A stretch of 64,000 nucleotides of DNA from positions 5,396,001 through 5,460,000 of the forward strand of contig OZ076409.1 in assembly GCA_964187785.1 (NCBI GenBank), written 5' to 3'. The notes under the pieces were generated by a model, which saw only the letters and a list, made by a program, of their open reading frames with translations, searched no databases and was not told the DNA's origin. The translations under genes were made by a program, and so were the position numbers. Positions within the stretch are counted from its first letter, which is position 1; the number at the start of each line of letters is the position of its first letter. Positions 20,342 through 58,343 of the stretch are shown here, piece by piece. This stretch comes from Amphiscolops sp. MND2022 (taxonomy: Eukaryota).

Positions 20342-20398
20342 GTATCTTGTTTGCTTAATCTCCAGATTAAACATGCAAGACAAGAAAGATTAACTAGA

Positions 20399-35083: not shown

Positions 35084-35582
35084 AACAAGCCGGGAACGGC
35101 CCAAGTCGGCGCCATATCTAAGGCTCAAAAATATTCAAGGAACAACTTTTGGGAACATTTTGGGGAAAATATTTTTCAAAAAAAGTACTTGGTAAAAAAG
35201 TCGCATAATGCCGAAAAACCCAAAAAGAGACCCTTTAGGCTCATTAAACGTTTTTTACAAACCGAAAACTTCAAATAACTCAAGGGAGTACCCTTTGACA
35301 AAATTCAAAAATTTCGGAAAAAAGTCGCATAGTTCCGAAAAAAAATCCAAAGGGGGACCCTTTGGTCTCACCTCTACTTGTGGAAGCATGAAAAAAATTT
35401 TGGTTTAGTGCGAGACTCGAACCCACGCTCTCCTGCTTCTCTAAGTCTGAAAATTAGTCGGCCAAGAAGATGAACATACCAGCTTATAAAAGCTTATGAA
35501 ATCTGTCACTTCGTTGGTCTTGAAAAAAAGAAAAGTCACTACTATAGTCTGCAATTTTCTTCGAAAAGCGCCGACTAAAAAA
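35084..35582 (-). mobile_element. Family A HINE-like copy
   Basis: AACAAGCCGGGAACGGCCCAAGTCGGCGCC...GCGCCGACTAAAAA. Confidence 0.65.
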
Positions 35583-36436
35583 TCTAGTTCATATCGCTGA
35601 TTCTGCAGTTTTTCATTCCTTAGTTTGATCATGAGTTACACCTTTTCAACTCTTTTTAAACTGATGGTCTAAAAATTAGGCAAAACAGATACCATCAGCG
35701 TCTATGGTTTCACCTATGGCGGCGGAAAAAAATTAGAAACTTTCGAACAAACCGAACAATAACCTCCAAACACTCAGAAGTCTAAATTTGAGTTTAACCG
35801 TTTGGGTCATCTAATAGTTAGTCTCTCCGTTTTTTGTTCAGCAAATGACGTCTGAAAAGTAATGCAACCGCTTCTGTTGCAAAGCAAAAGCATTGCGATT
35901 CACGGTGATAGGCTATTCAGAAGCAGTCGATGTTAGATGCCAACAACCGTTCTGGAGGACTATTTGGTGAAAAGTAATTCGAATTGGAAACATGGAAAAT
36001 TGAAGGATTTTCATTTTTACAAATTCAGCGTATTGCATTTCATCGGTGGAATCTTCATTCTCTAAAGGTTTTAATCAACGAAGCAACTTTCTCAACTCGG
36101 TTTTACTGTTTCGGTGTAAAAATATGAACCGTTTTCGGCTAAAAATTGGTTACGTTTGACTCAAATGAGTCCGTTTGCTGAAAAAACTATATCATCCTAG
36201 CTGCGAAAATATCATCGAATTCTAGAGAAATTTTTAAAATCTATTTCTCATTTTATCATAAATATCGAGGGTCGCCTGAAGACATTTTGCTTAAAAATTT
36301 TCGCAGAGAGCATCGAAACGTTAATATCGACATAATGAAGTGCTTGAGTGCAACAAGTTGAAACTAAGTTCTCTTCATATAATTTTGACTCTTTTACGTT
36401 TTCCCATCAATTTTTTAGTCTGTTGTTTTGTTCCAG

Positions 36437-36568
36437 AGAGTATCCGGAAGGACGACCACGTGCTGGAAGTACAGTGGATCACCCAGCACTGTGTCTCCCA
36501 GATGACCGCGTTTCCCTACGTCTTCATCTTCACCAAGGGATTCGTTCTGCTCTACGGCGCCTTTCTGG
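36437..36568 (+). CDS. GABA-B-like GPCR exon encoding ECL2 and TM5
   Basis: TTCCAG acceptor; QHCVSQM...FTKGFVLLYGAFL matches EHC...YKGLL.LFG.FLA; GTGAG donor; 132 nt, phase 1/1. Confidence 0.9.
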
Positions 36569-39500
36569 GTGAGGAGACAAGACACCCACATCTCACTATT
36601 TCAGAGGGGTTGATCGGGGGAGGGGGGTTTGAGATCAGTGATAATGTGTTAAATCTTTGCAACAGATTTTTTTAGCAATAACTGATTGAAAATTTTTTAA
36701 CCGAATCTGTTAAACCATTTTTGCCATGAATCTGAACTTAACCAATTTTCTAACAACTTTTTGAAGCGCATTAGGGTTTACTTTCGAGGCCATTTCCTCA
36801 AAGTTCTTGAAAACACAACCGGAGGAGTGGTTGGGAAATAAGAGAAGGTGCGGAAACTAGGCGAGACTGCCTGGCCTTACTTGAACTCCTAAACCTACGG
36901 CGCCTTTCTGGGTGAGACAAGACAATCCCACTCTTTCGGTATGGATAGGTATCGCTTTCCAGAAAAATCGCGTGCCCAAGTTAGGATCTCATGACAGTCT
37001 ATCCAATGGCTATCGATTGACTCGTGTACAGACAAAAGCACCAATTTCACACATAAGCGCCATAGTCAAAAGCGCCCCAATACAAAGAGCCTCACTTATT
37101 TTTAACCAATTTCATCTCTATATAAATATACTTGAAGGTGTTCAAACAAAATAACATTGGTAATGCCATGTTTTACATTTTAACACCAAACAAATTCCAA
37201 TTGAAAACGTCCTAAACTGTTAATTTCGGCGTTTCTGCCAACAAAATATTCATTTCCTGTAGAAACAATTAGTCAATAAACAGTTTTAAAATGAAAAACT
37301 CATAATTATTTGATTGAAGTGAGAAACTTGAAGTTGGTGGCCTAAAAGAGTCAGCAAGTTCCATGTAGCCTTTTACTGGGGCGCTTCTGTCTGAGGAGGG
37401 CGCTTTGTCTGGTGACCGATAGACCAACTAAATGCGTCAGTTAGAGTGCTAATACTACAATTTCGAGGAATTTTTCCAAATGATAAAGCAAGAAACCAAT
37501 TTGAACCAATGAACTGAATTATGTCACGAAGCATTCTCAGAGAACAATTGTTGAGAAGCGAAAATGATCCAAATCTTGCGGGGAAATCTCATACAGCAGA
37601 AGTCTCATGCAGCAAAAAAATGAAAATTAGGTCGTCCCATAAAGGAGAAAGGTTGTTTATGCTGCAATCTGATTAGCTGAAATTTGAAATCGAATTGAAT
37701 TCACTAGGCTGAAAACGCGTGTCAGATTTTGTTGGAATTATTATTATAACGTAGTCAGCTCATACTCCTAGTGCCCTAAATGAATGCAGGAGCGAAGCTA
37801 CGCCGAGCGAGGTACCATATGACCATGCCTCAATGTTGTTACTTGGCGATGGGAGCCTAGCGACCGAGCCATTTAACAAATATGCTTTTTCAAAAAAAAT
37901 CAAGTCCCATTAATAGTGGCTGTAACAGCACTAAACGCTAGTGTTTTGAATTCTACTGCATGGGATTGAATTTTCATTTTCTGTCGTATAAATTGGCCCC
38001 AATCTTGCTTCTAATGTGAACCAAAAAAGCAGTACGCATAAAAATCTAAGAGCTCTCATAGTTTCAAATGTTTATCAACAAACAATTCACGACAACTTTG
38101 AACGGCGACATTCTTGAACGGCAACTTTTTTGAAACAAAAGAATATTCACACATCAAAAATGAGATCGAGAATACTTGTAGCGATGTCTAGACGTTTTCT
38201 GATGGTTCGAACCATCCTTAGTTGAAGATATGGTTATGTAAACAAGATCTTTTTTCTAAATGATTGCAATGATAAGGACTGGTCCAGGACTGGTAAGGAC
38301 TTGTCCAGGACTTGTAGGGCTAAACGTGGCACATGTAAGGCCTGGTCCAGAACTTGACAAGTCCTTACCAGTCCTTGGAATGTTTGGCAGACCTGGAATT
38401 CAAATCTTTTTCAGTACGGGTGACAGGAAAATTGAAAGGTTTTCAGTGTTTTGTTTACTAGATGAACCATAAAAAACGGAACGCACGAAAATGTTTGAGC
38501 TTTCTAAGTTTCAAATATTTGTCGACAAACATTTCAAAATAACTCTGGACATTGCAATTCAGCTTGTCAGTTATTCAATTTTACAACTTTTTTCGAATAA
38601 AAAGAACTTTCAAACATCAGAAGTGTGAACGAAATGGAAGTAGTCTAACAAGCAGACCTTCTAGTAAGCAGACTACTCAAAAAGCTGAAAATTTAATCTA
38701 AATGTCAATTGTTTGACCAATCAGAAGTTAGAATTACAATCCAATGAAATGAGTGCTGGTACAGTCACTGTGTATGGAACTTGATGTACTTGAAGATGTT
38801 AGCTTATTCGTTGTCTGGCTCGGTCACTTCGCTCCCTTCGCCATTTAGCAACATTGCGGCATGGCCAACATTGCGGCATGGCTTCGCTCCTGCATTCAAA
38901 GCATTAGAGGTATCTGAACAGAGCTGACAACGTTATATTAGGAATTTAGTTGACTGCTAATCTGACGCAATTATTTAGTTCTAATCTGAAATTTCAACCA
39001 ATGGAAATCGCGTCACCAATCTGCTCATTAGCACGAATAATACCTTCATTCGATTTGACTGGTCTGCTTGTTGGACGCACTCCGAACGAAATGACTGGTA
39101 AAGATTTTTTGTGAATGTTCAAGTCAATTTTTTTGAGAATGAATACGTAGTGAGAAAATGATTGACAGAGAAAATGGAAGATTATCAGTGTCCTATTTAA
39201 AAATATAACGATTTTGAAGAGGATTTTTGCACAAAAAAAGTGCAAATGTCCGCGGAACCATTTCCCGGAAAAAAGCGGAAGGTGCCAAAAATACCTTCGA
39301 CACCCTCCAATACTTTGATGCACGTCTGTGCGTCCATTTCAGGTTCCCGCCTTTTCTCATCTCCAAAAATCCGGCCTGAAAACCACGCCCACTATCAATA
39401 AAAAGTTTTGAGATTAAGCATTTCACGCCCCAAGCTTCTAAAAGCTCTTGATAAAAGTTGTATTCATACGATGGGCCTTAGTTTTTCATTTTCAATTGGG

Positions 39501-40539
39501 GAACAAAAGGCATAGATAGTGCAATTGGTATATGCTCCAACCAAAATATTATCTCAACAAATGGTTGTTTATATCCGGCGGCTATCCCCGAATTTCTGTT
39601 TGCTCGAGGAAAAAACACGCCTTGTTAAAAAACAGATGATAAATTTGAGAGATATTCGTGGGATATTGCAGAGTACTTTGGGAGAAAATCAATATATCTC
39701 TTTTGCGGCAAAAATCCATACATTAGTCTTAGGAAAATTGAAGCCATGTAAAGGTTGTATTTTTATGTCATACTCGTGTATTTTCAAAGGAAAGTATTTC
39801 AGATACTGTAAAATTTTATTCAGTTACTAATTTATTTTTTGAAACAAATTATTCAAGTTTTGCTCTGATTTTCGACGATAAATTTCGAATTAGAATTACC
39901 CAAGCTTTGGAAGTTTTCTGTTCTGACCTATTTCAACAAAATTCCTCCAAATAATTCATCGAGTGTTGCACAAAAATATATAGGTTACCAATTTTAGTTG
40001 TCGTTGATTTTTTTAGAAGGAACAATATTTTCTGAGTATAAAGTTTGACCTATAAAACCATTTATGACCACCCGGATACAAAGCCACATGCGATTCCATG
40101 CAATTCCATGGAACCTCATGAATACAAATCCGGGCAAAACAAATCATGGCTCAGAGTCAAGTTGCTGAAATATTGGCGGGAAAGAATCTGAAGCTTTCAT
40201 TTATTTTTTTTTGGGTTCTAGGGCATCATAGTTTTTGTGACTCAAAACGAAGCTGTTCAATTTCTTCAGTTATAACTGCCGTGAATGCACAAAGAAAAAT
40301 ATAGTGAACAAAGTTTGTATCTGGCTTCTAAACTTTCACCCTATTTGATCTAAAAAATAAACTATAGATTTCTGCTTCTGTTTCAAGGTTTTTCACCAAT
40401 AGGTTTTCAAAGTTTTTCTAATGTTTTCACAAATTTCCCAAAAAAATGGTGGCGGGGGGAAGAAAAGAACCGAAAGTTTGTTGTATGTTCAATTTTTGGG
40501 CGTATTGTCTTTGGGCATAATATGCGGGGGCCATTCAAT

Positions 40540-41153
40540 TTTTAGTCGGCGCTTTCGTAGAAAGAACAGACTATAGTAGTGACTTTTTTTTAATTTCAAG
40601 ACCGACGAACTGGCTGATTTTATAAATTTTATTAGCTTTTACTTAGTAACTTGTAACTTTTAATGCCACTTGGCACAGGGGTTAATCCGGATTTTTTGAG
40701 ATTTGAGAAGCAGAAGGACGTGGGTTCGACTCTCCCACTTGACCAAAATATGTTTCGGCTCTGTGAGACTTTCCTCGAAAATTTTCTCAATGTATCCAAA
40801 GGGACCCCGTTCAATTTTCAAAAATATTTTGCAACAAGTTGGATTCCAAATAACCCCGAAGGGTCCCCCCTCTTACATTTTCGGCACTGTGAGATTGTTC
40901 CAAATTGTCATTTTTCGTCTGAAATTGAGATTTTTTATGCTTTTACAAGTTTTATACGCTGGATTTTTACTAGTTTGTTGTTCAATTTTTTGATATTTTG
41001 CAACAAATTGGATTCCACATAACCCCGAAGGGCCCCCCTTTTACATTTTCGGCACTGTGAGACAGTTTCAAAATTGTCATTTTTCGTCTGAAATTGAGTT
41101 TTTTTTAGTTTTTTACAAGTTTTTTACGTTGGATTTTTTTACTAGTATGTTGT
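40540..41153 (+). mobile_element. Family A HINE-like copy with two ~170-bp tandem units, abutting an exon
   Basis: Starts TTTTAGTCGGCGC; TAACCCCGAAGGG repeats at 40850 and 41020. Confidence 0.6.
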
Positions 41154-41160
41154 TTTTCAG

Positions 41161-41366
41161 CGTACGAGACGCGTCAGGTGCACATCGAGGAGCTGAACGA
41201 TAGTCGCAGCATCGGCATCTCCATCTACAACACCATCATCCTGTCTGGCTTCGGACTGCTCGCCTCGTTCGCCATCAAGACTGACGTCACCATGACCTAC
41301 CTCCTCATGGGCGCCATCAAAGTCTTCTGCGTGGCCATCACCATCTGTGTCATATTCCTGCCCAAG
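41161..41366 (+). CDS. GABA-B-like GPCR exon encoding TM6-TM7
   Basis: TTTTTCAG acceptor; AYETRQVHIEELNDSRSIGISIYN...IFLPK matches AWETR.V....LNDS..IG.SVYN...FVPK; 206 nt, phase 1/0; GC donor. Confidence 0.92.
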
Positions 41367-41453
41367 GCTAGTAACACCGCTTCTTTTCAGTTTTCTGTTA
41401 CCCCCCACCACCTAAAATTTTTTGAAAGAGTATTGTGAAGATATCAAAATAAC

Positions 41454-41882
41454 TAGACGGGAACGTCTAAAGTCGGCGCTATCTCTAAGGCTCAAAAAGC
41501 GCAAAAGACTTTTTTTGAAAAAAAACTTGAAATTTTGAATTTTTTTCTTTCAGAAAATAACGCATAGTGAAAGGGGGACTCTTTGGCGACAAAAATTTTT
41601 TCGAAAAATGTCGCACAATGCCGAAAAAATCGAAAGGGGGGACCCTTTAGTCTCGCCCGGTTTTGTAGGTTACGTTAAAAAAGTAAAAAAAAATGAAAGG
41701 GGGGACCCTTTTGCACTAATTTCCGCTGGCCGGACTTGGCCTTATGGTAGTAGTTTTAGTAGTTTCGATTGTAAGAAAAGTGGACCAATCAGAGTGAGAT
41801 TGTAGTCTGACGAAAAAAAAAGAAGAAAAACTAGCCACTGTAAGAGTCGGGCACTTTTCACTAGAAAAGCTCCGACTAAAAA
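41454..41882 (-). mobile_element. Family A HINE-like copy
   Basis: AGACGGGAACGTCTAAAGTCGGCGC...CCGACTAAAAA. Confidence 0.65.
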
Positions 41883-42828
41883 CACTTAGGACTAAATCCG
41901 AAACTTTTACTTTTATATTTCAGGGGCATGGTGACAGTTTAGAATCCAGATACAAACTTTGTTCACGCTATTTTTCCTAGTGAAGTCATGCGTTCCTGTT
42001 GAAATTTCAACAGCTTCCTGAATCACAACAAAAAACAGTTAATTTTCAACATATTCACAATCAAAATGTGTGGAGCAATGTTTTGTTCAAACGAAAAACT
42101 ATTCCAAGTTAATTTCATGTTATGGAAAAACTTCACTTCGAATTCAACTAGTTTAGCAAATTTTTGTATATTTCTCTCAAAAAAAATTGATGGTGGGGAA
42201 AATCAGAGAAGAGCCTTAACACCAATGGATCAAACCGCATCCATCAATATTTGAGAATATGCCTTCTTTCAAAAATGCGTTGATCGAAAAGTAAGTGGTT
42301 CATCAAAAATGTTTACACTGTCTCCTAAGGCACAAGCAGGTATGTTACATGCTCCCAGAGGTTTATCAGAACTCCAGTCTTCAATCCGTTTGTGCATCGG
42401 TGCAAAGATATTGGGGGAAATTAGAACAATTTCTGACTCATTTTTAGTCAGCGCATTTCGACAAAAAGAACCAACTATAACAGTGCTTTTTTAAAACCAG
42501 CGAACTGATAGATTTCTATAATCATTTTTATGATTTAGCAACTAACGTAGTTGCTTTATTAAGGTCTAACTGCCACTTGGCCTAGAGGTTAACTTGGATT
42601 TCTGAGATCTGAGACGAGGTCTGAAAAGCAGAAGTGCAAGGGTTCGAGGCTCGACCTATACCGAAAATTTTTATTGCTGAAAAAAGTAGGGGGAGACCGA
42701 AGGATCCCCGCTTAGGGTTTTTTTTCGGGTTTATGCGACTTTTATTAATTAATTTCTACGACCTCATTCAATAGTTTTTGATTCTGTTAATTGATGAGCT
42801 TTCTCAGAAGTGTGAAAAAGATCTACGT

Positions 42829-44188
42829 TTTTAGTCGGCGCATTTTCCTTTAAGGAAAAAAGCCCGACTATTACAGTGGCTAGTTTTTTTTTTTCGTCAG
42901 ACCACAGAGCTCATCGCGTATGTACCACTTTTCACAGAAACTGATAAGTTCACTCAGGCCAAGTTCCACCAATGCAAACTTACTGCAAAGGGTCCCCCTT
43001 TCGTTTTTTACCTTTTTTACGTAACCTACAAAACCGGAAGACTCCAAAGGGTCCCCCCTTTCAATTTTTTTTCGGCACTGTGCGAATTTTTTTTTCGAAA
43101 ATTTTTAATTTTTCAAAAGAGTCCCCCCTTCGGATTTTTTGATATTTTGCAACAGAAAGTATGTTAATGAATCCCAAAGGGTCCCCCCTTTCATTTTTCG
43201 GCACTATGCGACGTTTTCGAAGTTTTTTCAAAAAATTTTTTTCAAAAAAAATTTTCAAAAATTTTTTTGTTTCCAGTCGAGAAAAGTGATTTTCCAGTCA
43301 TATCGAGCATGAAAGGCACACTTTGGGTGTCTCGAAAGTGTTTTCAAAGCTTTTCATGAATACATCCTGGGCATATTTAGAAAACTGAGCTTTTTGAGCC
43401 TTAGATATAGCGCCGACTTTAGACGTTCCCGTCTTGTTTCGGCTTTCCGCGACTTGTTTTTCAAAAAATTTCATTTGATCGAAGGGTACCCCTTCAGTTT
43501 CATCTGCTGAAATCTGCTTTTTTTGCACTACGAGACTTTTAAAAAATATATTTTTCATTGTTTCTAGTTGGTGAAAAACGGTTTTCAAGTCTTATGCGTA
43601 TCCCTTCAGATATTTTTCGGCAACGTAAGTTTGATGGAATTTTCACAAAAGTGTGCCTTTCCATATTTAAAACCATTTGTTTTTAGTCGGCGCTTTTCTA
43701 GTGAAAAGTGCCCGACTCTTACATTGGCTAGTTTTTTTAAATTTTTTTTTCGTCAGACCACAGACCTCATCGCGTATGTACCACTTTTTACAGAAATTGA
43801 TAAAACTACTCAGACTACCCAGGCCAAGTCCGGCCAATGCAAACTTAGTGCAAAGGGTCCCCCCTTTCATTTTTAACCTTTTTTACGTAACCTACAAAAC
43901 CAGAAGAGACTAAAGTGTCTCCCCTTTCAATTTTTTTCGGCACTGTGCGACTTTTTTTGAAAATTTTTTAATGTCTCAAAAGAGTCCCCCTTTCGAGTTT
44001 TTTGATATTTTGCAACAGAATATTATATGTTAATAAAGCCCAAAGGGTCCCCCTTTTACATTTTTCGGCACTATGCGACATTTTCTGAAAGAAAAAAAAT
44101 CAAAAAATTCAAGTTTTTTTTTAAAAAAATCTTTTGCGCTTTTTGAGCCTTAGATATAGCGCCGACTTTAGACGTTCCCGTCTTGTTT
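42829..44188 (+). mobile_element. Two adjacent family A HINE-like copies (42829-43438, 43680-44188)
   Basis: Each TTTTAGTCGGCGC...GCGCCGACTTTAGACGTTCCCGTCTTGTTT. Confidence 0.7.
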
Positions 44189-44809
44189 TAACCTTGAGCG
44201 GAACGACGACTAGGGCCGTTTCCGGTTTGGCAATTCTTTTTTGCAGGTATCTTTCCAAAACTAATCTCCTTTGAGGATGAAAAATCAACTTTATTCTGAT
44301 TGTCAAAATTGAGCACAAGGAGTGCAATATCAATCTTTTACTGTGACATCAAGTGCAACGTTAGGAACCCCCTAACTTTCGGACAAAAGAATTTCTCAGG
44401 AAATGATGTGACAAAATCCAAGGGGAATGATAAATGACAGTTTTTTGGATATTTAACGAATAATTACCCCGGTTCACATTCCCTGTGTGTATGGTCCGGA
44501 ATGTCATGTAAAAAATTGTTTTTTTTTTAGAACAAGGAATAGAATCGTTCAAAATATTGTTTATGTTAGCAATCAAAGTACGCTGTGAACATCATTTCAT
44601 TTTTTAATTCCTCGAAACGAAGAAAATTGAAATTGGATAAATGAAACTCAGTCTCCGATAAAGAGTTTACTTTTCTTTGTTAGAACAATTCTTGGTACGT
44701 TGAGTCAACTCTGCGGTAAATCGCAAGTGAACTTGACAAAAAGTTAACTTTTAACGTTCCCTGGTTGGAACTGAGTGCAAAAAATATATATTATTTTCTC
44801 AACAATTTT

Positions 44810-45498
44810 AAGCCGGGAACGGCATAAGTCGGCGCCATATCTAAGGCTCAAAAAGAGCATAAGGACTGCAAAGGGTCAAGTATTCTCTTCTACAGTACCC
44901 GAAAAACCCAAAAGTTGAACAAAATTGGCGCACCAGGGGAATCCTTTGAGATTTTTTATCTATTGTGTCGCAAATAATCAAAAAAATTGAAGGGTGACCC
45001 TTTGGTGAAAATTTTTTCTTTAAAAATCTTACAATCCCGAAAAAGTCTTGAAGGTGGACCCTTTAGTCTCGTCCAGTTTTGTATGTTATGCTAAAAAAGG
45101 AACAACTCTTATAGTCCAGTTCCCTGGGCCAAAAGGTACAGTTTGGGTATCTTGGGCCTTAAAAATGTAGAACTTTTGGTAGAACTGTTATTGGTCACTT
45201 CAGGTGTATCGAAAAACAAGCCGGGAACGGCCCAAGTCTGCGCCATATCTAAGGCTCAATAAGACTCGAAAACACTTTTTCTACAACTGGAAAAGCTCTC
45301 AAAAAACTAAAAATTGAGGAGAAAACTTTTCCGAATTTTTTTTCGAAATTTTTTTTGAAGTCTCCGGTAAGTCGCATAGTGCCGAAAAATGTAAAAGGGT
45401 GGATCTTTGGGATTTTTTGAACATCCATTCTGTTGCAAAATATCAAAAAATTGATGACTATAGTCGACCCTTTTCATGAGAAAAGCGCCGACTAAAAA
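44810..45498 (-). mobile_element. Nested or adjacent family A HINE-like copies
   Basis: AGCCGGGAACGGC termini near 44811 and 45219; GCGCCGACTAAAAA near 45485. Confidence 0.6.
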
Positions 45499-45925
45499 CC
45501 TACAACTTCTCCAGTCATTTTATTTTCATTTCTCAGTATTTGTCCGAAAACTGGAGTGTTTTTCCTCGAATTGACAAAATTGGTCTTTTCCTATACTGAA
45601 GATAGAGCCTGTCATGAATATCCGAATTTTGATATTGAAACAATTTGAGCTGAAAAGATGTTATTTGCATTGAAACTCTGTATTGGATAATTTTCAAAAT
45701 TGAATAACATCGAATGGATTGTATTGGTGCAGTGCATTGGAATTGATTTGCTGCTCGAAATTTTAAAAAATCTTAGACAACATTTTCCCAGTCCATGATT
45801 TTCAACAATGTCAAAGCATTCAAAGGGCAGTCCAAAAATGCCTTTTAGTCATTTTACTTCGTCATTTCGTTCCGTGGTTTCCGAATTGACCTTCTCAAAG
45901 TTTGACCTTTGACCTTTGTTTTTAG

Positions 45926-46235: not shown

Positions 46236-46584
46236 AAAATCATTATAAAGAACACTTATTCCTTTAGAGCTTAACTTCGATTGTCTTTTTTTTATTTGAT
46301 CAATATTGGTGTGGGGTATAATCTCTAAGTTTACTCTTTCTCTTACACTTTTCATAGTCTTACTAAAGAAGGCATTGCTCTAAAGCTTGTAAAAATCCTT
46401 TTCCAAAGTTTGTTTTTGCTTTGGCGCGCCTTTTGGTGTTATGATTAATGTATTTTTCTAACCAAGGTGAATGTTTGAATCTGTAAATCATATGTATCTC
46501 TGTTACTTTCATCCCCATTTTAGTGTAAAACTTGAACATCATATAGTGTATCATATATTTTTGTTTGTTTGTTAAGTGACACAT
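46236..46584 (-). pseudogene. polB: Protein-primed DNA polymerase B fragment (inverted)
   Basis: YMIHY..FKFY...GMKVTEIH..YRFKHSPWLEKYINHNTKRRAKAKTNF and MKSVRERV motifs typical of Polinton pPolB. Confidence 0.8.
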
Positions 46585-46604
46585 ATATATATATATATAT
46601 ATAT

Positions 46605-47319
46605 ATATGACAAAGAAAAAACAGTCTTTGATAAACCAATTTACCTGGGATTCTCTGTTTTAGAACTGAGTAAATTGTTAATGTAAGAGTTTTAATATCA
46701 GAAAATACAACCATTTTAAAATAACAGAATTAAACTGCATTATATGGATACAGACTCATTGATTCTAAGTATAAAAACTTTAAACATTTTAATAGACTTG
46801 GAATCACCAATTTTTGAATTAGACAACTTCGTAGCTTTAGGATCAAAATCATATTCGTTTAGTTACAAAGATATGCAAAGCAATACTCAAAAGGTAACGC
46901 AAAAGACAGTGCAAAGCACAATCCAAAAGTCAAAACAAAAAGGAATACAACATACACCAATCCTCAATCGATTTATAAAATCAACATTTAGTTCTCAAAC
47001 AACAACAGCAACTAATTATTCTATCCGTTCAAGTGCGCACAACTTAACCGTTCAGAAACAAGATAAACTAGATTTGAATCCTTTTGATGATAAAAGAGTG
47101 TACTTAAATCCAATACAAAGTTTATCATGGGATAAACACACCCAGAAAGGCGATTGTCCTTGTATATATTGTTTGAAATTAATTGGTTTGTATTATAAAG
47201 AAATAACTGAAGGATTGAGGAATGATGAAAAAATATACTATAACACTTGGACTCTGAAAGAAAATCTAAGTCATCAACAGCTTTTAAGTCTGATAAGTGA
47301 TCGGGCACAACTTTTATAA
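46605..47319 (+). pseudogene. polB: Protein-primed DNA polymerase B, C-terminal part
   Basis: FDKPIYLGFSVLELSKLLM...LHYMDTDS catalytic motif, FVALGSKSYS, KQKGI, LNPFDDKRVY; in-frame stops upstream of 46744. Confidence 0.88.
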
Positions 47320-47399
47320 ATACACCTAAAAAACATTTATAATGGGATATGTTGGGTTATGATTTATGATAGGTTATGATTGGTTATACCTTTGATTCA

Positions 47400-48527
47400 T
47401 CATTTCAAGTCAAAATGTCTATGTCCATCACTACTAATACTTATTAGTTTTGCGGTTAGAACTAATGCATAAGCTATATAATCAGCTACATCAATAGCAG
47501 CACTTATTTTAAATTCTAATCTAACAGGTTGACTCGCAATGTGATCGTTTTGTTTGCTTAGGTCAAATACATAAAAATTGAAATTTGTTCTGATTTTGTG
47601 CAAATCAATAAATGGGTTGAGTAAGTTAGTTTCATTTTGCAAGTGATAAAAGTTTTCAATTTCCTTGTATGCTCGATCATATTTGTCGCGGTCGTAGTCA
47701 CATTCTATTGCATTATCATGTGTTTGTGAATCAATTTTATCTCTTTAAATCCAATAATTACAAAAGTTGGAGACGACTCGCCACTATTGCCTAATTCAAA
47801 TGTCCAATTGTTATTGGTGCTAACATCCCTTCTAAAAACAATCCGTTCCGCGTAACTCAACTCGGTTGGGTCTTTATTCAGTAGCTGATCCATAACAAGT
47901 TGTTGGTTTTCGATTCTGGGTATATAGTGTGGAATATACCAACTTATGTCTTTTACAACTACTTTTGCAGCATCCACCCCATTGCCTCTTATGATAGCAT
48001 CATTGTTATTGTTCCGTTTTAAAGTAAGAGTATAGCCCAATCCATGAGTTATTTTTTCTTGATCAGCAAAACCAAACAAGTCTTTTAGTTTTATTCTCAC
48101 AAAAAAGTTCCTTTCTCTGTTTTATTGTTTGTTAGTTCTTGTCTCGTGATTGCAGTATTTTGAGAAGATTGTTGAGTGCTAGTCAAACACTTGTACATTA
48201 AAGAAATTGAGTGCAAATTGTCAACTTTTTCCAGGTGTTTCCCCGCACTTGTTGTCAGTTTAGCTTCACTCAATAAAGCAACGGGCCCAAATTAACCAAG
48301 CTTATTTCATCACCGTTGGCATATCTTGTATCATCATTTTTAAGGACTTCAAGTTCTAATAAGATGTAAGAAAGCTGTAAACATATGTATGCATCTTTTC
48401 TTGGCAAACTGATACTTATATTCGAGTTGGCGTTATTGATTGTCGCTAAACTACTTGGAAAATATTTAATAAAATCAATTTTATGAATAGGTTTCTCAAG
48501 AATGTATTTACTCTTTATAGAAAACAT
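47400..48527 (-). pseudogene. Major capsid protein (double jelly-roll), three frameshifted fragments
   Basis: beta-rich fragments incl. IKLKDLFGFA...YTLTLKR...ISWYIPH.IP...PTFVIIGF...FYVFDLSKQ...VRLEFK resembling Polinton-type MCP; ~1.1 kb in viral context. Confidence 0.75.
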
Positions 48528-48599
48528 TGATTCTATTTATAATTAAAAATTATTGGAAAATTGCCGGAAAATTACTCGAACTTGTGGAAAATATTCATA

Positions 48600-49436
48600 C
48601 TTTCTAACCTTTTGTTGTTATAGTCAAAGTTGAATATATTTCTTAAAAGTTCTTGTTCATAGTATTTTCCTTGAATAATTTCTCTATTTTCATCTTCCAA
48701 AGTTTATGTTACTGGGTCGTTGTGTTGATGCTGTGTATTTTGAAAAGTTCTCTATTCCAATTTATTGTGCAACCTTTTGAATAAATGTTCCTTTCGCCAG
48801 GAACTCTTACAAAATCTCCCACTTGGAACTTGGGGACTTTGGGCAGTTTGGGGAATGGTATTAGACTTGGTTTTGGTGTGTTATTTTTAGAAACCATTCC
48901 AAATAGTGTCATTTTTGTTGAATCATGAACACGATTATTATTTTATCCAAAGCATTATTAATGTGATTCAACCAGTTACCTTTACCTTCAATATACATTG
49001 GTTCTTTGATTCAGTCCAGAAGTGTTTTATTGAAGCGTTCAACAAAAACAGCTTTCAAATCTGAATTGGTTAAATAAATTTGAAAATTTTGCTCTTTTAA
49101 ATAGTGCAAAAATGTCTGGCTGTAAAACTCTTTACCTCTATCACTCCACACTTTTCGCGGTTTTCTTTTACTAGTTTCCAATAAATTCTTGAATGCAGTT
49201 GTTGTACTTTCTCCTGATTTATCTTTGAGAGGAATCGCACATGCATATTTAGTATGATTGTCAATTATTGTGAAAATAAATTTGTAGTTTTTGTTGTAAT
49301 TGCTTGAACTTGAGCGATCAATTAAATCAATACTCCAAAATTCATCTTTATAGTGAGTTTGTATTTGAATTCTTCGAAACTTCTCGATTACAGGAGAGAA
49401 TACTTCTTTAGCAATCTGCTCTTTCTTTTGGTTCAT
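48600..49436 (-). pseudogene. int: Retroviral-like (rve) integrase of Polinton type
   Basis: WSIDLID, IIDNHTKYACAIPLKDK, VWSDRGKEF, VERFNKTL (D,D,E) and C-terminal PKFQVGDFVRV...KG...NWNRELFKI. Confidence 0.92.
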
Positions 49437-49586
49437 TTATTATAGTATCAAACAATTTTTACTAATTAAATGAAAAATGAATATTACATGAATGATGATA
49501 AAGGTGGGAGCAGTCGCGACGACGAAAATAAATTACCCTGGTATCAGACGATACGAGGCCGTATAAAACCAATCTTTACGAATCCA

Positions 49587-50613
49587 ATGTTTTTACCATT
49601 TAAATTTTATTTATAATTATTGCATTTATTATATATTGGTATTACGTTCGTCCTAAATGGTATTAAAAAATTTATAAAAAATTATTTAAATTTGATAGGT
49701 TCAAATACTCTCATCTGAAAAGCCAAAAAATTGAGAGCTCAGAAAATCAACAACTTGCTCCACCAATTGGAAATACTAACTCTCATTTTCTAATACTTGG
49801 AAGTAGTGGGTCGGGGAAGACATCTTTTTTAAAGCATTATTTAACACAGAAAAAATCAAACTTTGTAGTATTCGGACGAGATAGTACTGAGTTTCATGCT
49901 TCCAACTTTGTTCCTTTGTTACATTTAGAAAAATTAGGTATTGAATCACTTGCTAATGAAACGGTAATACTGGATAATGCAGGTGCATACAAGAGTCTCA
50001 AAATAAAAGTAGAAGACTTATTTCGGCTTGGTAGACATCATAACATCCAGGTATTTTATCTCGCTCACTATGCAAAGGATGTTCTCCCAGTTGTAAAAGA
50101 AAACTGCCTCAAGTTGTATTTAACAATTAACAACCCAGATAACTTTTTTGAGTCGATTGTGCAAACCTATTCAATCAAAGAATTAAAGTGGAGACAATAC
50201 CGTGATCGGTTAGAATTTGGTATGATTGAATTTGACACCCGTAGTCAGTAGTACAGAGTACTAAACCTCAAGTACAATTTAATTTATGAATCTAGTAAGC
50301 GCAACAAGTGGAGTCCCGAGGACTACGTTGCTTATGGAATGTTTTTTTTCACTGGTGATGTGTATCATAGATTAAAGGTGTTTTTAGAGGAGATGTCTGA
50401 CCAGACAATTGAAATAACACCATACAACGTAGCTTTTTATTATGTGGAGTATTGTAAACAAAATTAAATAAAAGTGAATGAATCCAAAATAGACAACTAC
50501 ACAGAGCGTATGCAACAACCACTGATTCCAGACAAAGTTAAAGAGGACTTTAAGAAAATTATATATGATCATACAATCAATTACAGCAAGACACAGGTAA
50601 ATTCGGAGAATTA
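49587..50613 (+). pseudogene. A32/FtsK-HerA-like packaging ATPase 1 (ends approximate, internal stops)
   Basis: Walker A GSSGSGKT (49799-49822) in frame with VILDNAG (Walker B) and LFRLGRHHNIQVFYLAH. Confidence 0.75.
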
Positions 50614-50923
50614 ATTCTTAGAGAAGTTTATAGAAGTTTAGAGATATTTAGAGATATTTAGAGATATTTAGAGGATATGAGTGATTCCTTAAAGAATTTG
50701 AGTGACTCTCTAAGACTCTTTAAGACTCTCTAAGATTCTTTCAACTCCTCTAAGAGCACACATATTCTCTAAGATGTATGCTCTTAGAGAAGTTGAGAGA
50801 AAATATTTCCTCTTAGAGTTTTTAGAGGAAATTGAGAGATTTCTTTGTGATTTTTTGCTTAGTGATTCTTAGAGGAGTTGAGATAAGATTAGTAAACAAT
50901 TTTGTAATTTTTTCACTAAATGA

Positions 50924-51960
50924 ATGAAGTGCTTAATTTGTAGGGAAAGTAGTGAAAAATCACTGTGTGATGATTGCAATAAAAAAAAGATGTGCGGATT
51001 GTAATGAGATGAAAATGGACTTCTATTCATATGAAAATTGTGAAATGTATAACGTTTGTAAAGAATGTTTCAACAAAAAGGTAAGGGGTGAATTTTGTAA
51101 TAAGAAATTAATTAAGAGTTATTTAAGGTCTCATATCAAGAAGCAGCATATACAACATAATATCCAGCATCATTATAATCAGCAGCACATACACCAGCAA
51201 CGGTATAATGGTAGTGGTATTGGTAGTGGTGTTTACAACGATAGTGCTTTACAATGATTCAATACTGCTTGCATTGGTGTTTCCGGAGGTCCTTCCGGAG
51301 GTCCTTCCGGAGTTGCTTGCAATAGCGAGCAGAATACCGATAGTGAGAATAATAGGACATTAATAGTTGGTCCATCATTTTGTGGTAAGACTCATTTGCT
51401 GTTGAATAAATTACGATTGAATCGTTTGAATGACTATGAGACAAATTCCCCATCGCCACAAATTCATATCATTACGAGGAGTCCGGAACAATACGAAGAT
51501 GTGAAACTAGAATTAGAACTAGGAGATGCTTTGCAAGACGTTTCAGTGGAAGAAAATTTGGAGGATTTGGAAATGTACCGGGGGTGTTGTGTAGTATTTG
51601 ATGATATGCTAGACTCCAATCAGAAATTAATAGATCCATTTTTTACTAGAGGAAAGACACAAAAACTTGGATATTTGTAATTTATCACAAAGTTACTTCA
51701 ATGTACCAAAAAAGACAATTAGAAACAATTCGAATGTAATAAGTTTGTTTCAACAAGCATTTGAAGATTTTGAACACATTTATAGAGATATAGCAGGTTT
51801 TGATATGTCTTATGACGAATTCAAACAACTGTGCAGAGAGGCATGGAAAAAAATACTGTTATTTTTTAATAAACAGGCTAGAAGATAAAAATAGGAGAAG
51901 GTACAAGATTTGCAATGAATCTAATTCAAATTACAAGATCTTTAATCCACATACTGAACC
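50924..51960 (+). pseudogene. Zinc-finger-fused A32-like packaging ATPase 2
   Basis: Cys/His-rich ORF 50952-51257 is in frame, across one TGA, with TLIVGPSFCGKT (51369-51392), VVFDDM, FFTRG and, after a frameshift, LSQSYFNVPKKTIRNNSN. Confidence 0.82.
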
Positions 51961-52493
51961 TTTTTGAAGTTGGGTGCATCAAATGTGCTTTGTAATGTGG
52001 AATTAAAATTGCTTTGCATATTTTGGTGTTGGGAGGGTGTAAAGCATTCATACTCTATTAGTTTATCTACATTTGCTATCATTTGTTCATTGAACAGAAA
52101 ACTGTCATTTCCTCCTACTTTTTCAAAATAAAGTAGTTTTAATTGATCAACTAATTCGTCTGGATCAGATGGGAGGAAGACGATGTGGCTCTGCGTGTAG
52201 CCCTGGAATCCGCTTCTCGCGTAGTTTTGCGTGTAGCTCTGCAATCCGCTTCCTAATTGAATGTCGTCGATAGTATTACCCCAATGGAATTGTTGATAGC
52301 GAGAGTACAACTCTTCAATAAAATAACATCTCGTTGATTTGTTATCCCCATAGTATATGTTATAATTCATATCATCTAAGAAACTATATATTGTGTCCAG
52401 GTTATTTATTTCTCTAGCAATTTGTGTATTAGTTATAAAATATTGAAGATCTAGGTCATTTAGATCGTACGAAATCTCATTCTGGAAAGTCAT
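51942..52493 (-). CDS. Polinton conserved protein (LPSDPDELVDQLKLL motif), copy 1
   Basis: 183-aa ORF with GSG motif followed by LPSDPDELVDQLKLL...GN...NE, a pattern I recall from Polinton-associated proteins; ATAAATG start. Confidence 0.6.
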   Translation of the reverse strand: MTFQNEISYDLNDLDLQYFITNTQIAREINNLDTIYSFLDDMNYNIYYGDNKSTRCYFIEELYSRYQQFHWGNTIDDIQLGSGLQSYTQNYARSGFQGYTQSHIVFLPSDPDELVDQLKLLYFEKVGGNDSFLFNEQMIANVDKLIEYECFTPSQHQNMQSNFNSTLQSTFDAPNFKKVQYVD

Positions 52494-53225
52494 TTATGAA
52501 CCATTGATTATTACAAATTGGGGGTTATGGAGGTTAATTGTGAATAAATTTGGATTGTTTTGTGTAATTGGTTCTAAACTAAATTGACGTTTGGTGTTAA
52601 GAAGGTTGGAAACTGCCTTTACAATACTGGAACCAACTTGGTTGGAATTAACAAGACTCGTAAGAAGTTGATTATTACGGTTTGTAATTTCATCATAATC
52701 TTGAATTCCCTGTTTATTAGATTTTTGCAGATTATCATACAAAGTGTTGCTACTTTCTTGAATAGCCAATGAAGAATCATGAAAAGCTTGTATTTGCTAT
52801 TCAGATAATTGTTTTTGGTTTTCAGTAGCTTCCACCTGCTTTGCAGTAACAGGTTTAAAAACTTCTTCCATATCGTAGTGGAAGTATTGCTTCCCTAGTT
52901 TCTTTTTTAATCTTTCTTTGTGTAGTAAAGAGTTTGTTTCTTGCACTTTTTCAAATTTTTCTAAGTCATCCCGAGAATGAATTGAATACATTTATTAAAT
53001 ATACTTAATGAATTTTCCCCAAATATAAACCCTTCCCTTGATCTTTAATCCACATACTGAACCTTTTTGAAGTTGGGTGCATCAAATGTGCTTTGTAATG
53101 TGGAATTAAAATTGCTTTGCATATTTTGGTGTTGGGAGGGTGTAAAGCATTCATACTCTATTAGTTTATCTACATTTGCTATCATTTGTTCATTGAACAG
53201 AAAACTGTCATTTCCCCCTACTTTT

Positions 53226-53600
53226 TCAAAATAAAGTAAGTAGTTTTAATTGATCAACTAATTCGTCTGGATCAGATGGGAGGCAGACGATGTGGCTCTG
53301 CGTGTAGCCCTGCAATCCGCTTCCCGCGTAGTTTTGCGTGTAGCTCTGCAATCCGCTTCCTAATTGAATGTCGTCGATAGTATTACCCCAATGGGATTGT
53401 TGATAGCGAGAGTACAACTCTTCAATAAAATAATATCTCGTTGATTTGTTATCCCCATAGTTTATGTTATAATTCATATCATCTAAGAAACTATAAATTG
53501 TGTCCAGGTTATTTATTTCTCTAGCAATTTGTGTATTAGTTATAAAATATTGAAGATCTAGGTCATTTAGATCGTATGAAAGCTCATTCTGGAAAGTCAT
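53226..53600 (-). pseudogene. Same conserved protein, copy 2, truncated by a 4-bp insertion
   Basis: Near identical to copy 1 until QLKLL, then frameshift at ~53237. Confidence 0.6.
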
Positions 53601-54119
53601 TTATGAACCTTTGATTAATACAGGTTGGGGGTTATGGAGGTTAATTGTGAATAAATTTGGATTGTTTTGTGTAATTGGTTCTAAACTAAATTGACGTTTG
53701 GTGTTAAGAAGGTTGGGAACTGCCTTTACAATACTGGAATCAACTTGGTTGGAATTAACCAGACTCGTAAGAAGTTGATTATTACGGTTTGTAATTTCAT
53801 CATAATCTTGAATTCCCTGTTTATTAGATTTTTGCAGATTATCATACAAAGTGTTGCTACTTTCTTGAATAGCCAATGAAGAATCATGAAAAGCTTGTAT
53901 TTGCTTTAAAGATAATTGTTTTTGGTTTTCAGTAGTTTCCACCTGCTTTGCGGTGGCTTCCGCCTGCCTTGCAGTAACAGGTTTAAAAACTTCTTCCATA
54001 TCGTAGTGGAAGTCTTGCTTCCCTAGTTTCTTTTTTAATCTTTCTTTGTGTAGTGAAGAGTTTGTTTCTTGCACTTTTTCAAATTTTACAGAGTCATCCC
54101 GATTATGAATTGAATACAT
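53601..54119 (-). CDS. Polinton hypothetical coiled-coil protein; copy at 52494-52991 is broken by a stop
   Basis: 172-aa ORF with EEVFKPVT motif, ATAAATG start, duplicated. Confidence 0.55.
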   Translation of the reverse strand: MYSIHNRDDSVKFEKVQETNSSLHKERLKKKLGKQDFHYDMEEVFKPVTARQAEATAKQVETTENQKQLSLKQIQAFHDSSLAIQESSNTLYDNLQKSNKQGIQDYDEITNRNNQLLTSLVNSNQVDSSIVKAVPNLLNTKRQFSLEPITQNNPNLFTINLHNPQPVLIKGS

Positions 54120-54133
54120 TTATTAAATATATT

Positions 54134-54560
54134 TAATGAATTTTCCCCAAATATAAGCGCTTCCCTTGATGTACAAGTTTTACAATATCAGGAGCAGATG
54201 CAGCAGTAAGGTTTGGATTTTAACTTGCTGCTGCAGTTTCAATATTTGCTGCTATTTCCAATGCGCGGGCTGGATTATTGAGTATTTTCTTTCCAACGTT
54301 CTTGGCGGCAGCTTTCGCAGCTTTTCCCACACCTCGGAAATGGTCGCCCAATCCTTACCCTTTTATTGTTTGATCAGATACTAAAAGGGAGTTATTTCTT
54401 TCACACGTAGTACAAGTACCACGTAATGATTTTACGGGTAATCATGTTTTTTTATTTTTAGTACTATCTCCACGAATATTTGTGGTAGCGGAATAATGTT
54501 TTCCATCAACACCATATGAAATATTTTTAAATTTACCGAAAGTGCTTTGCTTATTGTAGC
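54134..54560 (-). pseudogene. Small virion-type protein: CxxC region plus basic amphipathic helix (pVI-like candidate)
   Basis: Single frame with three stops: ...RGTCTTC...IKG*GLGDHFRGVGKAAKAAAKNVGKKILNNPARALEIAAN... Confidence 0.5.
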
Positions 54561-55064
54561 TCAGTTATAAGGAAAAAAATTCATTATATTTTTAAGAATC
54601 AAATCTTGATAATTTGAATTGTGAATGTTAATGTCTCCCCGTTGAAATAAACTCTGTTGTCTGTTGTGGTTGGAGTCTGCTAGGAAAAATTGGATGGTGT
54701 CCAGTCGTGTTTTGTTTCTTTTTTTATACAAAACAGTGGTTGGTTCTTTTATAATTTTATATCCGGGATGTGCGCTTAAATTAAATGAAGATAAACTTCG
54801 TTCTCGAAAACCATAAACAATTGAACCATCTACGCAGTCGCACTTCAGGTGAACTTTGTCGGTGGTTGTTATTATGACTGGTTTCTCTGACGTGTGAATT
54901 CCGGGTGGGTAATCTTTAAGTGTAAAACCCAAAAGAAAGTTAAGTCTGGAATTAAAGTGAATATGGTGTGAGGTTGTTAAAACTGATTTCATTGATATTG
55001 TGTTGGGATATATATAGACTTTGAAATCATTATCACTTTCATCAATTTTTTTGTTTAAAGGCAT
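54561..55064 (-). pseudogene. Minor capsid protein (penton-like single jelly-roll), partial
   Basis: LLGF...SEKPV.I...VHLKCDCVDGSIVYG...FNLSAHPGYKIIKEP...Y...IQFFLAD pattern characteristic of Polinton minor capsid. Confidence 0.75.
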
Positions 55065-55148
55065 TATTTATATCAACTAGTTCATAAGCTCCTGGTGTTA
55101 GTTGTATTTCAAAGAAATCGTTTTCAATAATCTCAAAGCTTGGTATGT

Positions 55149-55641
55149 TTAGAGTTGGTGGCATATCTCGCCCTGACTTGGTGGGAGAGATGAAATTTTA
55201 GACTGTTGTTTTGGCGGTTTATTATATTGTTTGAAAGTTTCTATTATTTTAATTAATTGGTAGTACAAACTTAGTACTGCATTTTTGAAGCCAATTATGT
55301 TCGTGAGATACAACACATACAAAGAATTCGCTGCACAATAACTATCAATTTTCTGAATTTGACATTCTGAATAGAAACCATTTTTTGTTCGTTTCATTAT
55401 GTTTACTGGAGGTGGACAGCCATAAGAATCAAAATCAAATTCGTTAACAAACATAATCCAATGTTCCTTTAGTTGGGTGTAAATTTACAATTCCAAAATC
55501 TGTTGTAAACTTATCAACTCTCATGTATATTCCACACGGGATATTTATTTCATTAAGTATTTCTTTTATTTTTACATTAGAAGTTGCTTTATTTTTTAGT
55601 CTGTATTTTTCAACAAATTCTTTGAATGATGAATAATTCAT
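55149..55641 (-). pseudogene. Adenain-like cysteine protease (frameshifted)
   Basis: GIVNL...GT, then HWIM across a frameshift at ~55463, FDSYGCPPP, IQKIDSYCA (His, Asp, Gln, Cys residues). Confidence 0.8.
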
Positions 55642-55909
55642 TTATTAGTTGTTTTTCATTGTGGAGCACGTACGTTAGTAGTGAACGTCAAATGGTTTGG
55701 GGGGGAGAATATAGTCTTTCAACCTAAGACATTCCGCGCTAGTTTCTATAATACGCTATCGCAACTGAAACATATGGTGCACAGTCAAAAGAAAAATTTC
55801 AACTCAAAACTACTTACTATTCACCGTTAATTCCATAAACTGCTTCAAAAATATAAAAAGTAAACCAAACCCACAAAACCAAAAATTGATGATTTTCTTC
55901 GTCTTTTCT

Positions 55910-56232
55910 CCTGATCCGCGAAGTTTCGCGCGCAGCTCCGCAGGAATATTTGTACGCCCAGGAATATCCAGGAATAACAGGAATATTTGCAGGAATACCC
56001 GGGATTAATTGTATGTGAGGAAATAATCGTGTTGGAGTATTTATTGCATACAAGCACTGAAAAAAAGGAAAATTGGAATTCGTATTTTTCATTTTTATTT
56101 ATTGCATACAAGCACTGAAAAAGAAAGAAAAATTGGAATTCGTATTTTTATTTATGCGTTGTGTTTTGCGTTGCGCAAATTTGCGTATTGGTTATTTTTG
56201 CAGAACTTCGCGCGAAGCTTCGCGAACACTTG
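55910..56232. repeat. Structured non-coding end of the Polinton: inverted GC-rich arms around a ~56-bp direct repeat
   Basis: CGCGAAGTTTCGCGCGCAG (55917) versus CTTCGCGCGAAGCTTCGCG (56206); TTATTGCATACAAGCACTGAAAAA...AAAATTGGAATTCGTATTTTT twice. Confidence 0.6.
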
Positions 56233-58343
56233 TGTCACCACTTGGATGCACATGGTCTGGCTTTGTGAAAAAACGCTAATTTCAATGGTTTGCTTAACTT
56301 GAATTTTTTTGTTGCTTGGCCTATAACAGCATTTCTCCTACTATTTTCGGCTCTATGCGACTTACCAGAACATTCGAAAAAAAGGCTTCGAAAAAAATTT
56401 TGAGTGCTTGACACTTTGAAGGCTTTTTTCTATTTTTGAGCATTAGATACGGCGCTGACTTGGGCCGTTCCCGGCTTGTTAAGAAAAAAAGAGGGAAAAC
56501 ATTGACTTTCGAAAGCTTGTTTTCTTCAAACAAACCAAATAATCATAAAAGAACCAATGATGAAGAAATCATTTCAAAGATTGACTGAATAATAAAGTTG
56601 TGTCAAAACAAAAGAAGAGCAATCTTACAATTCCGTATTTACAGTCGACAGTATAACTTATAGCTACGAGGAGATCTCCAAAATAAAACGGATTCGTGGT
56701 GTTTTAATCGGTCTTTCCCGTAAGATTGAAAAGACCTGACAATTGCAATGATTTTTTCAAGACCAGTGAACTGAAGATTTCTATAGGCTTTTCTATAGGT
56801 TGTAAGTTCGGATTGCCACTTGGCCTAAAGATTGACCCACTTTTTCTGATGTCTGGGAAGCAAGATTAAGAGTGGGTTCGATTTTCACGCAAAGCCAAAA
56901 TTTTCATTTGCTTGCAAGGGTATTGGGGAGACCAATTAGTTTTCCTTTCGGTTCTTTTTGGCGTTTTGCGACATTTTTCTGAAGTTTTCCAAGCAGAACA
57001 CCCCCTCTGATTTTTAGCAAAGAGAGTTTTGCGAGCAGAGAGGACCACTTCAGGATTTTTCCGCCGAACGCGACTTTGGATTTTCCTACTTTTGGCCGGT
57101 TGTTTTTCATAACCTTCGAATCCCTTTTGCTTTTTGGGAAAAAAATCTGAGTCTTTATAAGAAGACTGCCGTAGTATTAACCCCATTTATGATGGACGTC
57201 AACTGTGGGCCTTGTGAGTGAAAGCTTATCATTTTTTTGCTTTTGTAGCAATTTCTACAATCTTCAAATTATACACTCCGAATTAAACTGTTTCGGACAT
57301 AAGAGAAGAAGTTTGTGGCACACCATGAAATATTTCAGCAGGTGTAACCCAAAATGATCTCTACAAGGATGATTGAAGAATTTCATACAAGACCATATTA
57401 CCATGGATACTGAATGAATAGATGAATTGTTTATAATATGACTTGAGTTTGATTCATTTCTCAATTAATAACCTCGTTAGAGATTTTCTCCTGAGTGTCA
57501 GAGAATGAGGACAGCGAATTTTTTCACAATCAATGAAAATTACGAAACACAAAAAGGATATAGCAAAACGAAAATTTGTCTTTATCAACAATCTATTGGA
57601 CTATCTGGGGCCAGTTGTTATTTGTGTCAAAATAGTTTGTTTTTCGAACCACCGGTGAAAAAGTGAATGGAAAAAAGTTAAAATTTGCAACAAAATACTT
57701 TTCAGAAGCAGCTTTTTTTTCAATATCAGAGCAACTGTTTGCTAAGTTACAGTCAGACTCTAGTAACACAGTTTGCCACTGAAAACGCAGATGGAAGTTT
57801 TTTCAAAGTCGCTTCAGCTAAGAGTTCGATCGGCATTTGAAAAGCACGGCGAAGCTGGGCCCGCACCACCGGGGTGGCGCTCTCACCCAACAAATGACAC
57901 CAATTTCCAGGTTAACTAGTGTGCATTTAAAGGCTTAGTTGAAGAGTTTTCAGGAGCAGAAAACTGATTTAAGCTGTGGATATTATTCGTAGAGAAATTA
58001 AGCATTAAGAAATTGTTGCCAGTTTTGTGTCAATTGTTTGACTTCTCTGTGTGCTGACGAGGATAAGTTTACAGCACAATTATTGATTCGTTTGATACAA
58101 AGCAAAGCTTAGAATGTTCGTTGATGAAATAATTTACAACTGCTCGGTGGATGGGATTTTGAAAATAGTGATGCGATAAATTAATGCAAGAACCCAATCA
58201 CTCTACAATTCGCTTTGTTTGAGAATTCATTGCCTGGTATACGTTTTTATGTAATATATACAGTAACTTGTATCAAAAAGCTACACATTAAGGTACTTTA
58301 ATGAAGCTATTAATCTAATACCCAATTCCCCAAATGGTAGTAT

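Follow-up and report, generated by a model that had tools for sequence, protein, structure and literature searches.

Gene content of the locus

The window, that is, the whole stretch of 64,000 nucleotides analysed here (Amphiscolops sp. MND2022, assembly GCA_964187785.1, contig OZ076409.1, positions 5,396,001 to 5,460,000), contains two packaging-type ATPase pseudogenes on the plus strand of an island of low GC content at about 46.2–55.5 kb (Table 1). As read from its sequence, this island is a decayed Polinton, and the two ATPases are found among roughly ten genes of the copy. The limits of the two genes were set by mapping full-length relatives on the window (tblastn).

Table 1. Features of the decayed Polinton, in window coordinates
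Feature	Position	Strand	Description
Protein-primed family B polymerase, putative remnant	46240..47319	.	Two oppositely oriented pieces around (AT)13
Double jelly-roll major capsid protein remnant	47400..48536	-	Two pieces; Pfam DJR-like_dom E=1.1e-7 and 1.9e-4
Retroviral-type integrase remnant	48709..49436	-	Divergent from ATPase 1; Pfam rve E=1.1e-10 on 49014-49436; 3' piece (48709-48942) assigned by position only
ATPase 1 pseudogene	49488..50614	+	Hydrophobic helix, A32/FtsK core with His sensor, helical C-terminal extension
Spacer	50615..50923	.	309 bp; 10-nt TTAGAG-type repeats in both orientations
ATPase 2 pseudogene	50924..51967	+	CxxC zinc-finger region, low-complexity linker, A32/FtsK core with Gln sensor
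Further element ORFs	51937..55067	-	Without Pfam matches
Candidate minor capsid gene (may be)	54561-55067	-	Without Pfam match
Adenain-type cysteine protease, likely remnant	55149..55700	-	His, Asp and Gln/Cys motifs

ATPase 1 carries one frame change, inside the hydrophobic segment, and three in-frame stops, and the reading frame of ATPase 2 changes three times and is interrupted by one stop. Both genes are thus broken in this copy, and their function must be deduced from relatives. The motifs GSSGSGKT, VILDN and GRHHNI, which a sequence-only reading of the locus had reported for ATPase 1, are present there in a single frame, and GPSFCGKT, VVFDD and TRG..SQSYF are likewise present in ATPase 2 but span a frame change. 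The hydrophobic N-terminus of ATPase 1 suspected in the same reading is real and conserved, with the helix at about 49590–49655, but the gene starts at 49488, upstream of the position 49587 given there. A cysteine-rich ORF at 50924–51257 was considered as a separate gene and rejected, since tblastn with full-length relatives identified it as the zinc-finger N-terminus of ATPase 2; the two ATPase genes are thus adjacent, separated by the 309-bp spacer. No coding match to either ATPase family was found in the spacer. Its folding as single-stranded DNA was strong (z=-4.75, against a shuffle control that does not preserve the repeats), and the spacer could be a candidate protein-binding or packaging signal.

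Regarding the other genes, the capsid remnant scored 31.9 bits with Pfam DJR-like_dom against a cut-off of 27. Pfam scans of the polymerase and protease remnants gave no match. We take the former to be a putative protein-primed family B polymerase from YMDTDS and the neighbouring C-terminal motifs in its translation, and the latter is presumably an adenain-type protease from motifs spotted by eye. The polymerase remnant adjoins a 200-N gap, and the opposite orientation of its two pieces, joined at (AT)13 beside this gap, represents an inversion or an assembly artefact. A 1.1-kb tandem duplication (51937–53042 and 53040–54170, 93–99% identical) includes two unassigned minus-strand ORFs of the element. 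Neither terminal inverted repeats nor a target-site duplication were found in 46240–56400, the left end meeting the 200-N gap, and neither a fusogen nor any further envelope gene was identified in the copy, which is truncated.

Elsewhere in the window, exons of a class C GPCR (7tm_3) lie at 20111–20542 and 41109–41438, with more than 20 kb of repeat-rich introns between them. Situated upstream of the Polinton, these exons point to an animal as host. An element at 24733–25416 and 28267–31314 is Gag-like and has a zinc knuckle; judged by eye, it resembles an LTR retrotransposon, and the start of its first ORF is present twice. Dispersed repeats at 32800–45500 and 56400–57000, in both orientations and many copies of 60–95% identity, are probably a non-autonomous transposon.

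Two distinct families of A32-type ATPases

Relatives of ATPase 1 formed 413 clusters among 611 candidates. The 120 clusters listed, with 686 members, were on ENA contigs, many of hundreds of kb, and 105 of the 120 relatives listed were at least 330 aa long. Of these 120, 113 had Walker A and 114 the Arg finger, and the standard Walker B and a His at the sensor position were each present in 115, whereas the atypical Walker B of the window was shared by two. A hydrophobic helix, defined as a Kyte-Doolittle 19-mer of at least 1.6, was found in 103 of the 104 listed relatives whose core is preceded by 60 residues or more. The His in place of Gln and the C-terminal extension, both pointed out in the sequence-only reading, are thus real, and together with the hydrophobic N-terminus they are conserved in relatives, which makes them family traits and not products of decay. 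That the N-terminus is a membrane anchor is predicted from the scan for hydrophobicity and from a model with a mean pLDDT of 59.

Packaging ATPases of this family are characterised, in the part of the source available, by Walker A and B motifs, by an Arg finger that acts on the adjacent subunit, and by a sensor residue that is polar and mostly Gln (PMC11703096). The His of ATPase 1 agrees with this feature in being polar, but is other than Gln, and need not imply inactivity. The adenovirus protein IVa2 also has a His near the sensor position. In Pfam searches, ATPase 1 of the window scored 29.1 bits with Pox_A32 against a cut-off of 22.8, and its scores for FtsK_SpoIIIE, TrwB_AAD_bind and Zot were all under the cut-offs, suggesting that ATPase 1 is like the coupling proteins without being a member of their families.

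The fold was modelled on the ATPase 1 relative P0052 (mean pLDDT 59, with the core at about 75–88 and the tail and linker of low confidence). The model matched STIV2 B204 (4kfr) with Z 15.1 and rmsd 2.8 over 169 aligned residues, and HerA and VirB4 with Z 14.0 each; TcpA and FtsK were also among the solved-structure matches. Foldseek matches comprised A32-like proteins of giant viruses, virophages and one adintovirus, while Atlas matches comprised general A32 clusters only, and a search of solved structures by sequence gave no useful match. As far as this model indicates, ATPase 1 is an A32-type protein with the FtsK/HerA fold. The possibility that it belongs to a non-A32 P-loop family was rejected on the basis of the A32 motif set and the fold match to B204, HerA and FtsK.

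Relatives of ATPase 2 formed 658 clusters among 757 candidates. The 120 listed were again on ENA contigs, many of hundreds of kb, and 93 of them were at least 270 aa long. Walker A (114/120), Walker B (107/120), the Arg finger (108/120) and the Gln sensor (110/120) were conserved among the relatives listed, and at least two CxxC pairs were present in 78 of the 88 listed relatives with a long N-terminus. The zf-C2HC_2 domain scored 26.2 bits in relative P0186, slightly below the cut-off of 27. A hydrophobic stretch of the ATPase 1 type was found in none of 96 listed ATPase 2 relatives. Precomputed Pox_A32 matches were present in 7 of the 120 relatives listed, and the full-length relatives P0152 and P0186 gave no match to Pox_A32. 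The predicted model of ATPase 2 (pLDDT 46.5) was too low in confidence for a fold search, and its class is assigned from the motifs, the profile match to ATPase 1 (93%) and the tree.

BLASTP of ATPase 1 against ATPase 2 aligned the P-loop alone (8/15 identities, E=0.055), in agreement with the little similarity beyond the motifs stated in the sequence-only reading, while the family profiles aligned over 109 columns (hhalign, 93%, E=3e-7), with a core identity of about 25%.

Phylogeny and probable joint inheritance of the pair

A search with the ATPase 1 profile against 1.84 billion representatives gave 297 matches at E<=0.001, and most of the 150 listed were short fragments. Distant relatives were picked by hand (15 longer matches, one cluster member and six from another search), and they were mostly from metagenome contigs of 1–8 kb. 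All 22 had the His, although their selection by likeness to the ATPase 1 profile favours its retention, and 19 had the hydrophobic helix, the remaining three having short N-termini. The clam Mactra antiquata has two copies of the His clade, P0505 and P0513 (KAL4240361.1 and KAL4224295.1), on different chromosome-scale records; both are annotated as hypothetical proteins, and both gene models are without the hydrophobic helix. P0505 begins just past the position of the helix in close relatives, and its start may thus have been called too late. Loci of relatives were also sought in viral and metagenome contigs, prokaryote genomes and phage records, where none was confirmed. Two motif-pattern scans gave 12 loci and no relative, and four of these loci were one giant-virus region with a chance match in a non-coding frame.

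In the core tree of 39 rows, the His clade was separated from the Gln-type proteins, including ATPase 2, with support of 97/96, and the long-branch P0508 fell inside the His clade. The split was clean (100/100) in a tree of 25 rows, built after removal of 14 rows, among them the long branches P0506, P0508, P0509 and P0486. An AU test rejected a joint clade of the element's two ATPase families (p-AU about 1e-129), and a recent duplication was thus rejected, as had been proposed from the motifs. The His clade being separate and a joint clade being rejected, ATPase 1 is an ancient paralog or xenolog. The suggestion of a repurposed paralog therefore fits, but a xenolog from another element lineage is equally possible. 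The trees contain six other A32-like rows; the phylogeny advised in the sequence-only reading thus yielded separate clades, but on a sample short of a full phylogeny.

Joint inheritance was examined through the contigs of the relatives, which were equated when identical in size on the assumption of one assembly, with 0.3–1.5 Gb tried as its size. Among the matches listed, 24 contigs were common to both families, ATPase 1 being present on 174 contigs and ATPase 2 on 161. Coincidence of numbers alone would give 0.06 shared contigs, and a size-aware control was used instead. Under independent placement, contigs shorter than 100 kb (n=45) shared 5 against 1.3–0.3 expected, those shorter than 250 kb (n=97) shared 13 against 6.2–1.3 expected, and contigs of all sizes shared 24 against 23–5 expected (0.3–1.5 Gb throughout), so that over all sizes the excess is gone at 0.3 Gb (24 observed against 23.1 expected). 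The ATPase 1 and ATPase 2 distances of the 24 pairs and the window were correlated (Mantel r=0.61, 0/10,000 permutations), as were those of the 14 pairs from contigs shorter than 250 kb (r=0.42, 11/5,000 permutations), and the two ATPases of the window take corresponding positions in the two trees. Incongruence was apparent for four of the 24 pairs, on contigs of 127–766 kb.

The shared contigs and the co-divergence suggest that ATPase 1 and ATPase 2 are likely to be inherited together across the element family, with adjacency itself seen in this window alone. Co-occurrence in other copies, a check set out beforehand, was thus found as an excess of shared contigs among the small ones, but with four incongruent pairs. 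Two ATPases are apparently normal for the element family, and the pair is thus a family trait and not a quirk of one copy. The sequence-only reading had allowed that dual ATPases might already be standard for this clade; they do appear to be the norm, but no paper describing the pair was found.

Possible roles of the two ATPases

One ATPase per Polinton or adintovirus element is described in the portions available of PMC8097293, PMC8502044 and bioRxiv 2023.08.22.554363, and Table S1 of PMC4028283 scores the ATPase as presence or absence only. In the open-access literature, as far as its accessible text extends, no report of two ATPases in one Polinton was found, and a prior annotation, for example in Repbase, is possible. 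Such an element is unmentioned in the accessible parts of PMC8502044, PMC4028283, PMC5803895, PMC11131425, PMC8575486, PMC8097293 and PMC11703096, and in those of bioRxiv 2023.08.22.554363, 2026.06.19.733378, 2026.10.13.758929 and 2022.07.12.499685. The present element resembles Polinton/Maverick elements (adintoviruses) in its integrase, its double jelly-roll capsid protein and the likely protein-primed polymerase and protease, and ATPase 2 has the Walker A and B motifs, Arg finger and Gln sensor. It is unlike them, as they are described in these partial sources, in having two ATPases, of which ATPase 2 carries a zinc finger and ATPase 1 a predicted membrane anchor. Among giant viruses, Medusavirus stheno, Gaeavirus and Klosneuvirus each have more than one A32-like entry (Foldseek matches), which provides a precedent for extra copies in Nucleocytoviricota; this likeness is one of copy number and not of sequence, and there the several A32-like genes sit in genomes of hundreds of kb.

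ATPase 1 shares its fold and motif set with B204 of STIV and STIV2, vaccinia A32 and the virophage ATPases but, compared with what the sources available in part describe, adds an N-terminal hydrophobic helix, a His as sensor and a helical tail about 100 residues long. According to the available part of PMC11703096, viral FtsK/HerA members are minimal motor domains, with filamentous phages noted for membrane domains, and FtsK has its membrane domain at the N-terminus. By analogy, the layout of ATPase 1 (helix, linker, motor and helical tail) resembles that of the anchored FtsK/HerA members. FtsK/SpoIIIE, TrwB/TcpA and gp1/Zot of filamentous phages, all among the fold matches of ATPase 1, are likewise FtsK/HerA-superfamily motors tied to a membrane, whereas ATPase 1 is a viral protein of the A32 type, in which one predicted helix precedes the motor.

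Considering these results, we tentatively prefer a scenario in which ATPase 2 packages the genome and ATPase 1, anchored in a membrane, assembles into a ring of its own that acts at a membrane step. The zinc finger of ATPase 2 would bind the genome, and its motor would pump the genome into the capsid. ATPase 1 would form a separate ring, anchored in host-derived membrane by its single N-terminal helix, with the motor beyond a flexible linker on the far side, in the manner of FtsK or the TrwB-type coupling proteins. There the ring might be a docking site for the capsid or for the ATPase 2 motor; alternatively, it might pump the genome through a membrane, whether an internal one, that of an envelope or that of the nucleus.

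The roles may instead be reversed, with ATPase 1, which has its own anchor, as the actual packaging motor of a virion that contains a membrane, and ATPase 2 as an accessory for recognition or delivery of the genome. The Pox_A32 cut-off is passed by ATPase 1 and missed by two ATPase 2 relatives, so that either could be the main motor; the model of ATPase 1 best matches packaging ATPases, its clade is old and widespread, and FtsK/HerA packaging has been linked to viruses that pass their DNA across a membrane (PMC11703096, in the part available). It is ATPase 2, on the other hand, that has the usual Gln as its sensor and falls among the Gln-type A32-like proteins, and we consider the reversal unlikely. 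A mixed ring of both proteins, in which ATPase 1 would supply the membrane-anchored subunits, corresponds to the heteromeric motor proposed in the sequence-only reading. The genes are adjacent, on the same strand and co-diverging, and the Arg finger, which acts on the neighbouring subunit, is kept in both. Mixed rings often have one degenerate partner, whereas both ATPases have a full catalytic set; furthermore, the core identity is about 25%, the separate history of the two is long, and linkage alone suffices for co-divergence, so that a mixed ring seems quite unlikely.

In a mosaic element, the second ATPase would have been gained from another Polinton lineage by module exchange; each ATPase would belong to the module of its own ancestry, and the two would be redundant for the most part. 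ATPase 1 is nested in a clade from other sources, and module exchange is described for adintoviruses and Polinton-like viruses in the accessible parts of PMC8502044 and bioRxiv 2026.06.19.733378. If one gene were redundant, its decay would be expected, whereas both ATPases retain full-length frames and invariant catalytic residues in sub-families differing at up to about one-third of residues, which speaks against redundancy and makes this explanation decidedly unlikely. That one ATPase derives from a nested element or from a different P-loop family is scarcely credible. The repeat-rich spacer between the genes does contain inverted repeats, but no terminal repeats enclose either gene and the genes co-diverge, on which grounds a separate nested element was set aside as improbable; both proteins have the A32 motif set, and the fold of ATPase 1 matches B204, HerA and FtsK. 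This possibility, raised in the sequence-only reading as one that would undo its claim, is thus largely excluded.

What is new is not so much this broken copy as the clade of A32 ATPases with a His sensor and a predicted membrane anchor, together with the fact that such an ATPase is paired with a standard one. A32 is used as a single-copy marker in trees of these viruses. Because Pfam best recognises the atypical ATPase 1, picking the A32 marker could mix two lineages. Furthermore, ATPase 1, as a natural anchored variant with a His sensor beside a standard one, is a testable protein.

DNA packaging by FtsK/HerA viral motors is described as poorly understood (PMC11703096), and Polinton virions as without observation so far (PMC8097293; bioRxiv 2023.08.22.554363), in the parts of these sources available; nematode Mavericks with a fusogen, as described in a source available in part, are a precedent for enveloped particles. 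The conserved second motor with its predicted anchor suggests a specific membrane step in the packaging or movement of Polinton DNA. It is possible, though doubtful, that a lineage of animal Polintons and related free viruses has a two-motor system, in which an ATPase of the undescribed and widespread His-sensor clade pumps the genome across a membrane or works in a mixed ring with the zinc-finger packaging ATPase. If so, these elements would form membrane-containing particles, or would move their DNA between compartments or cells in the manner of a conjugative coupling protein.
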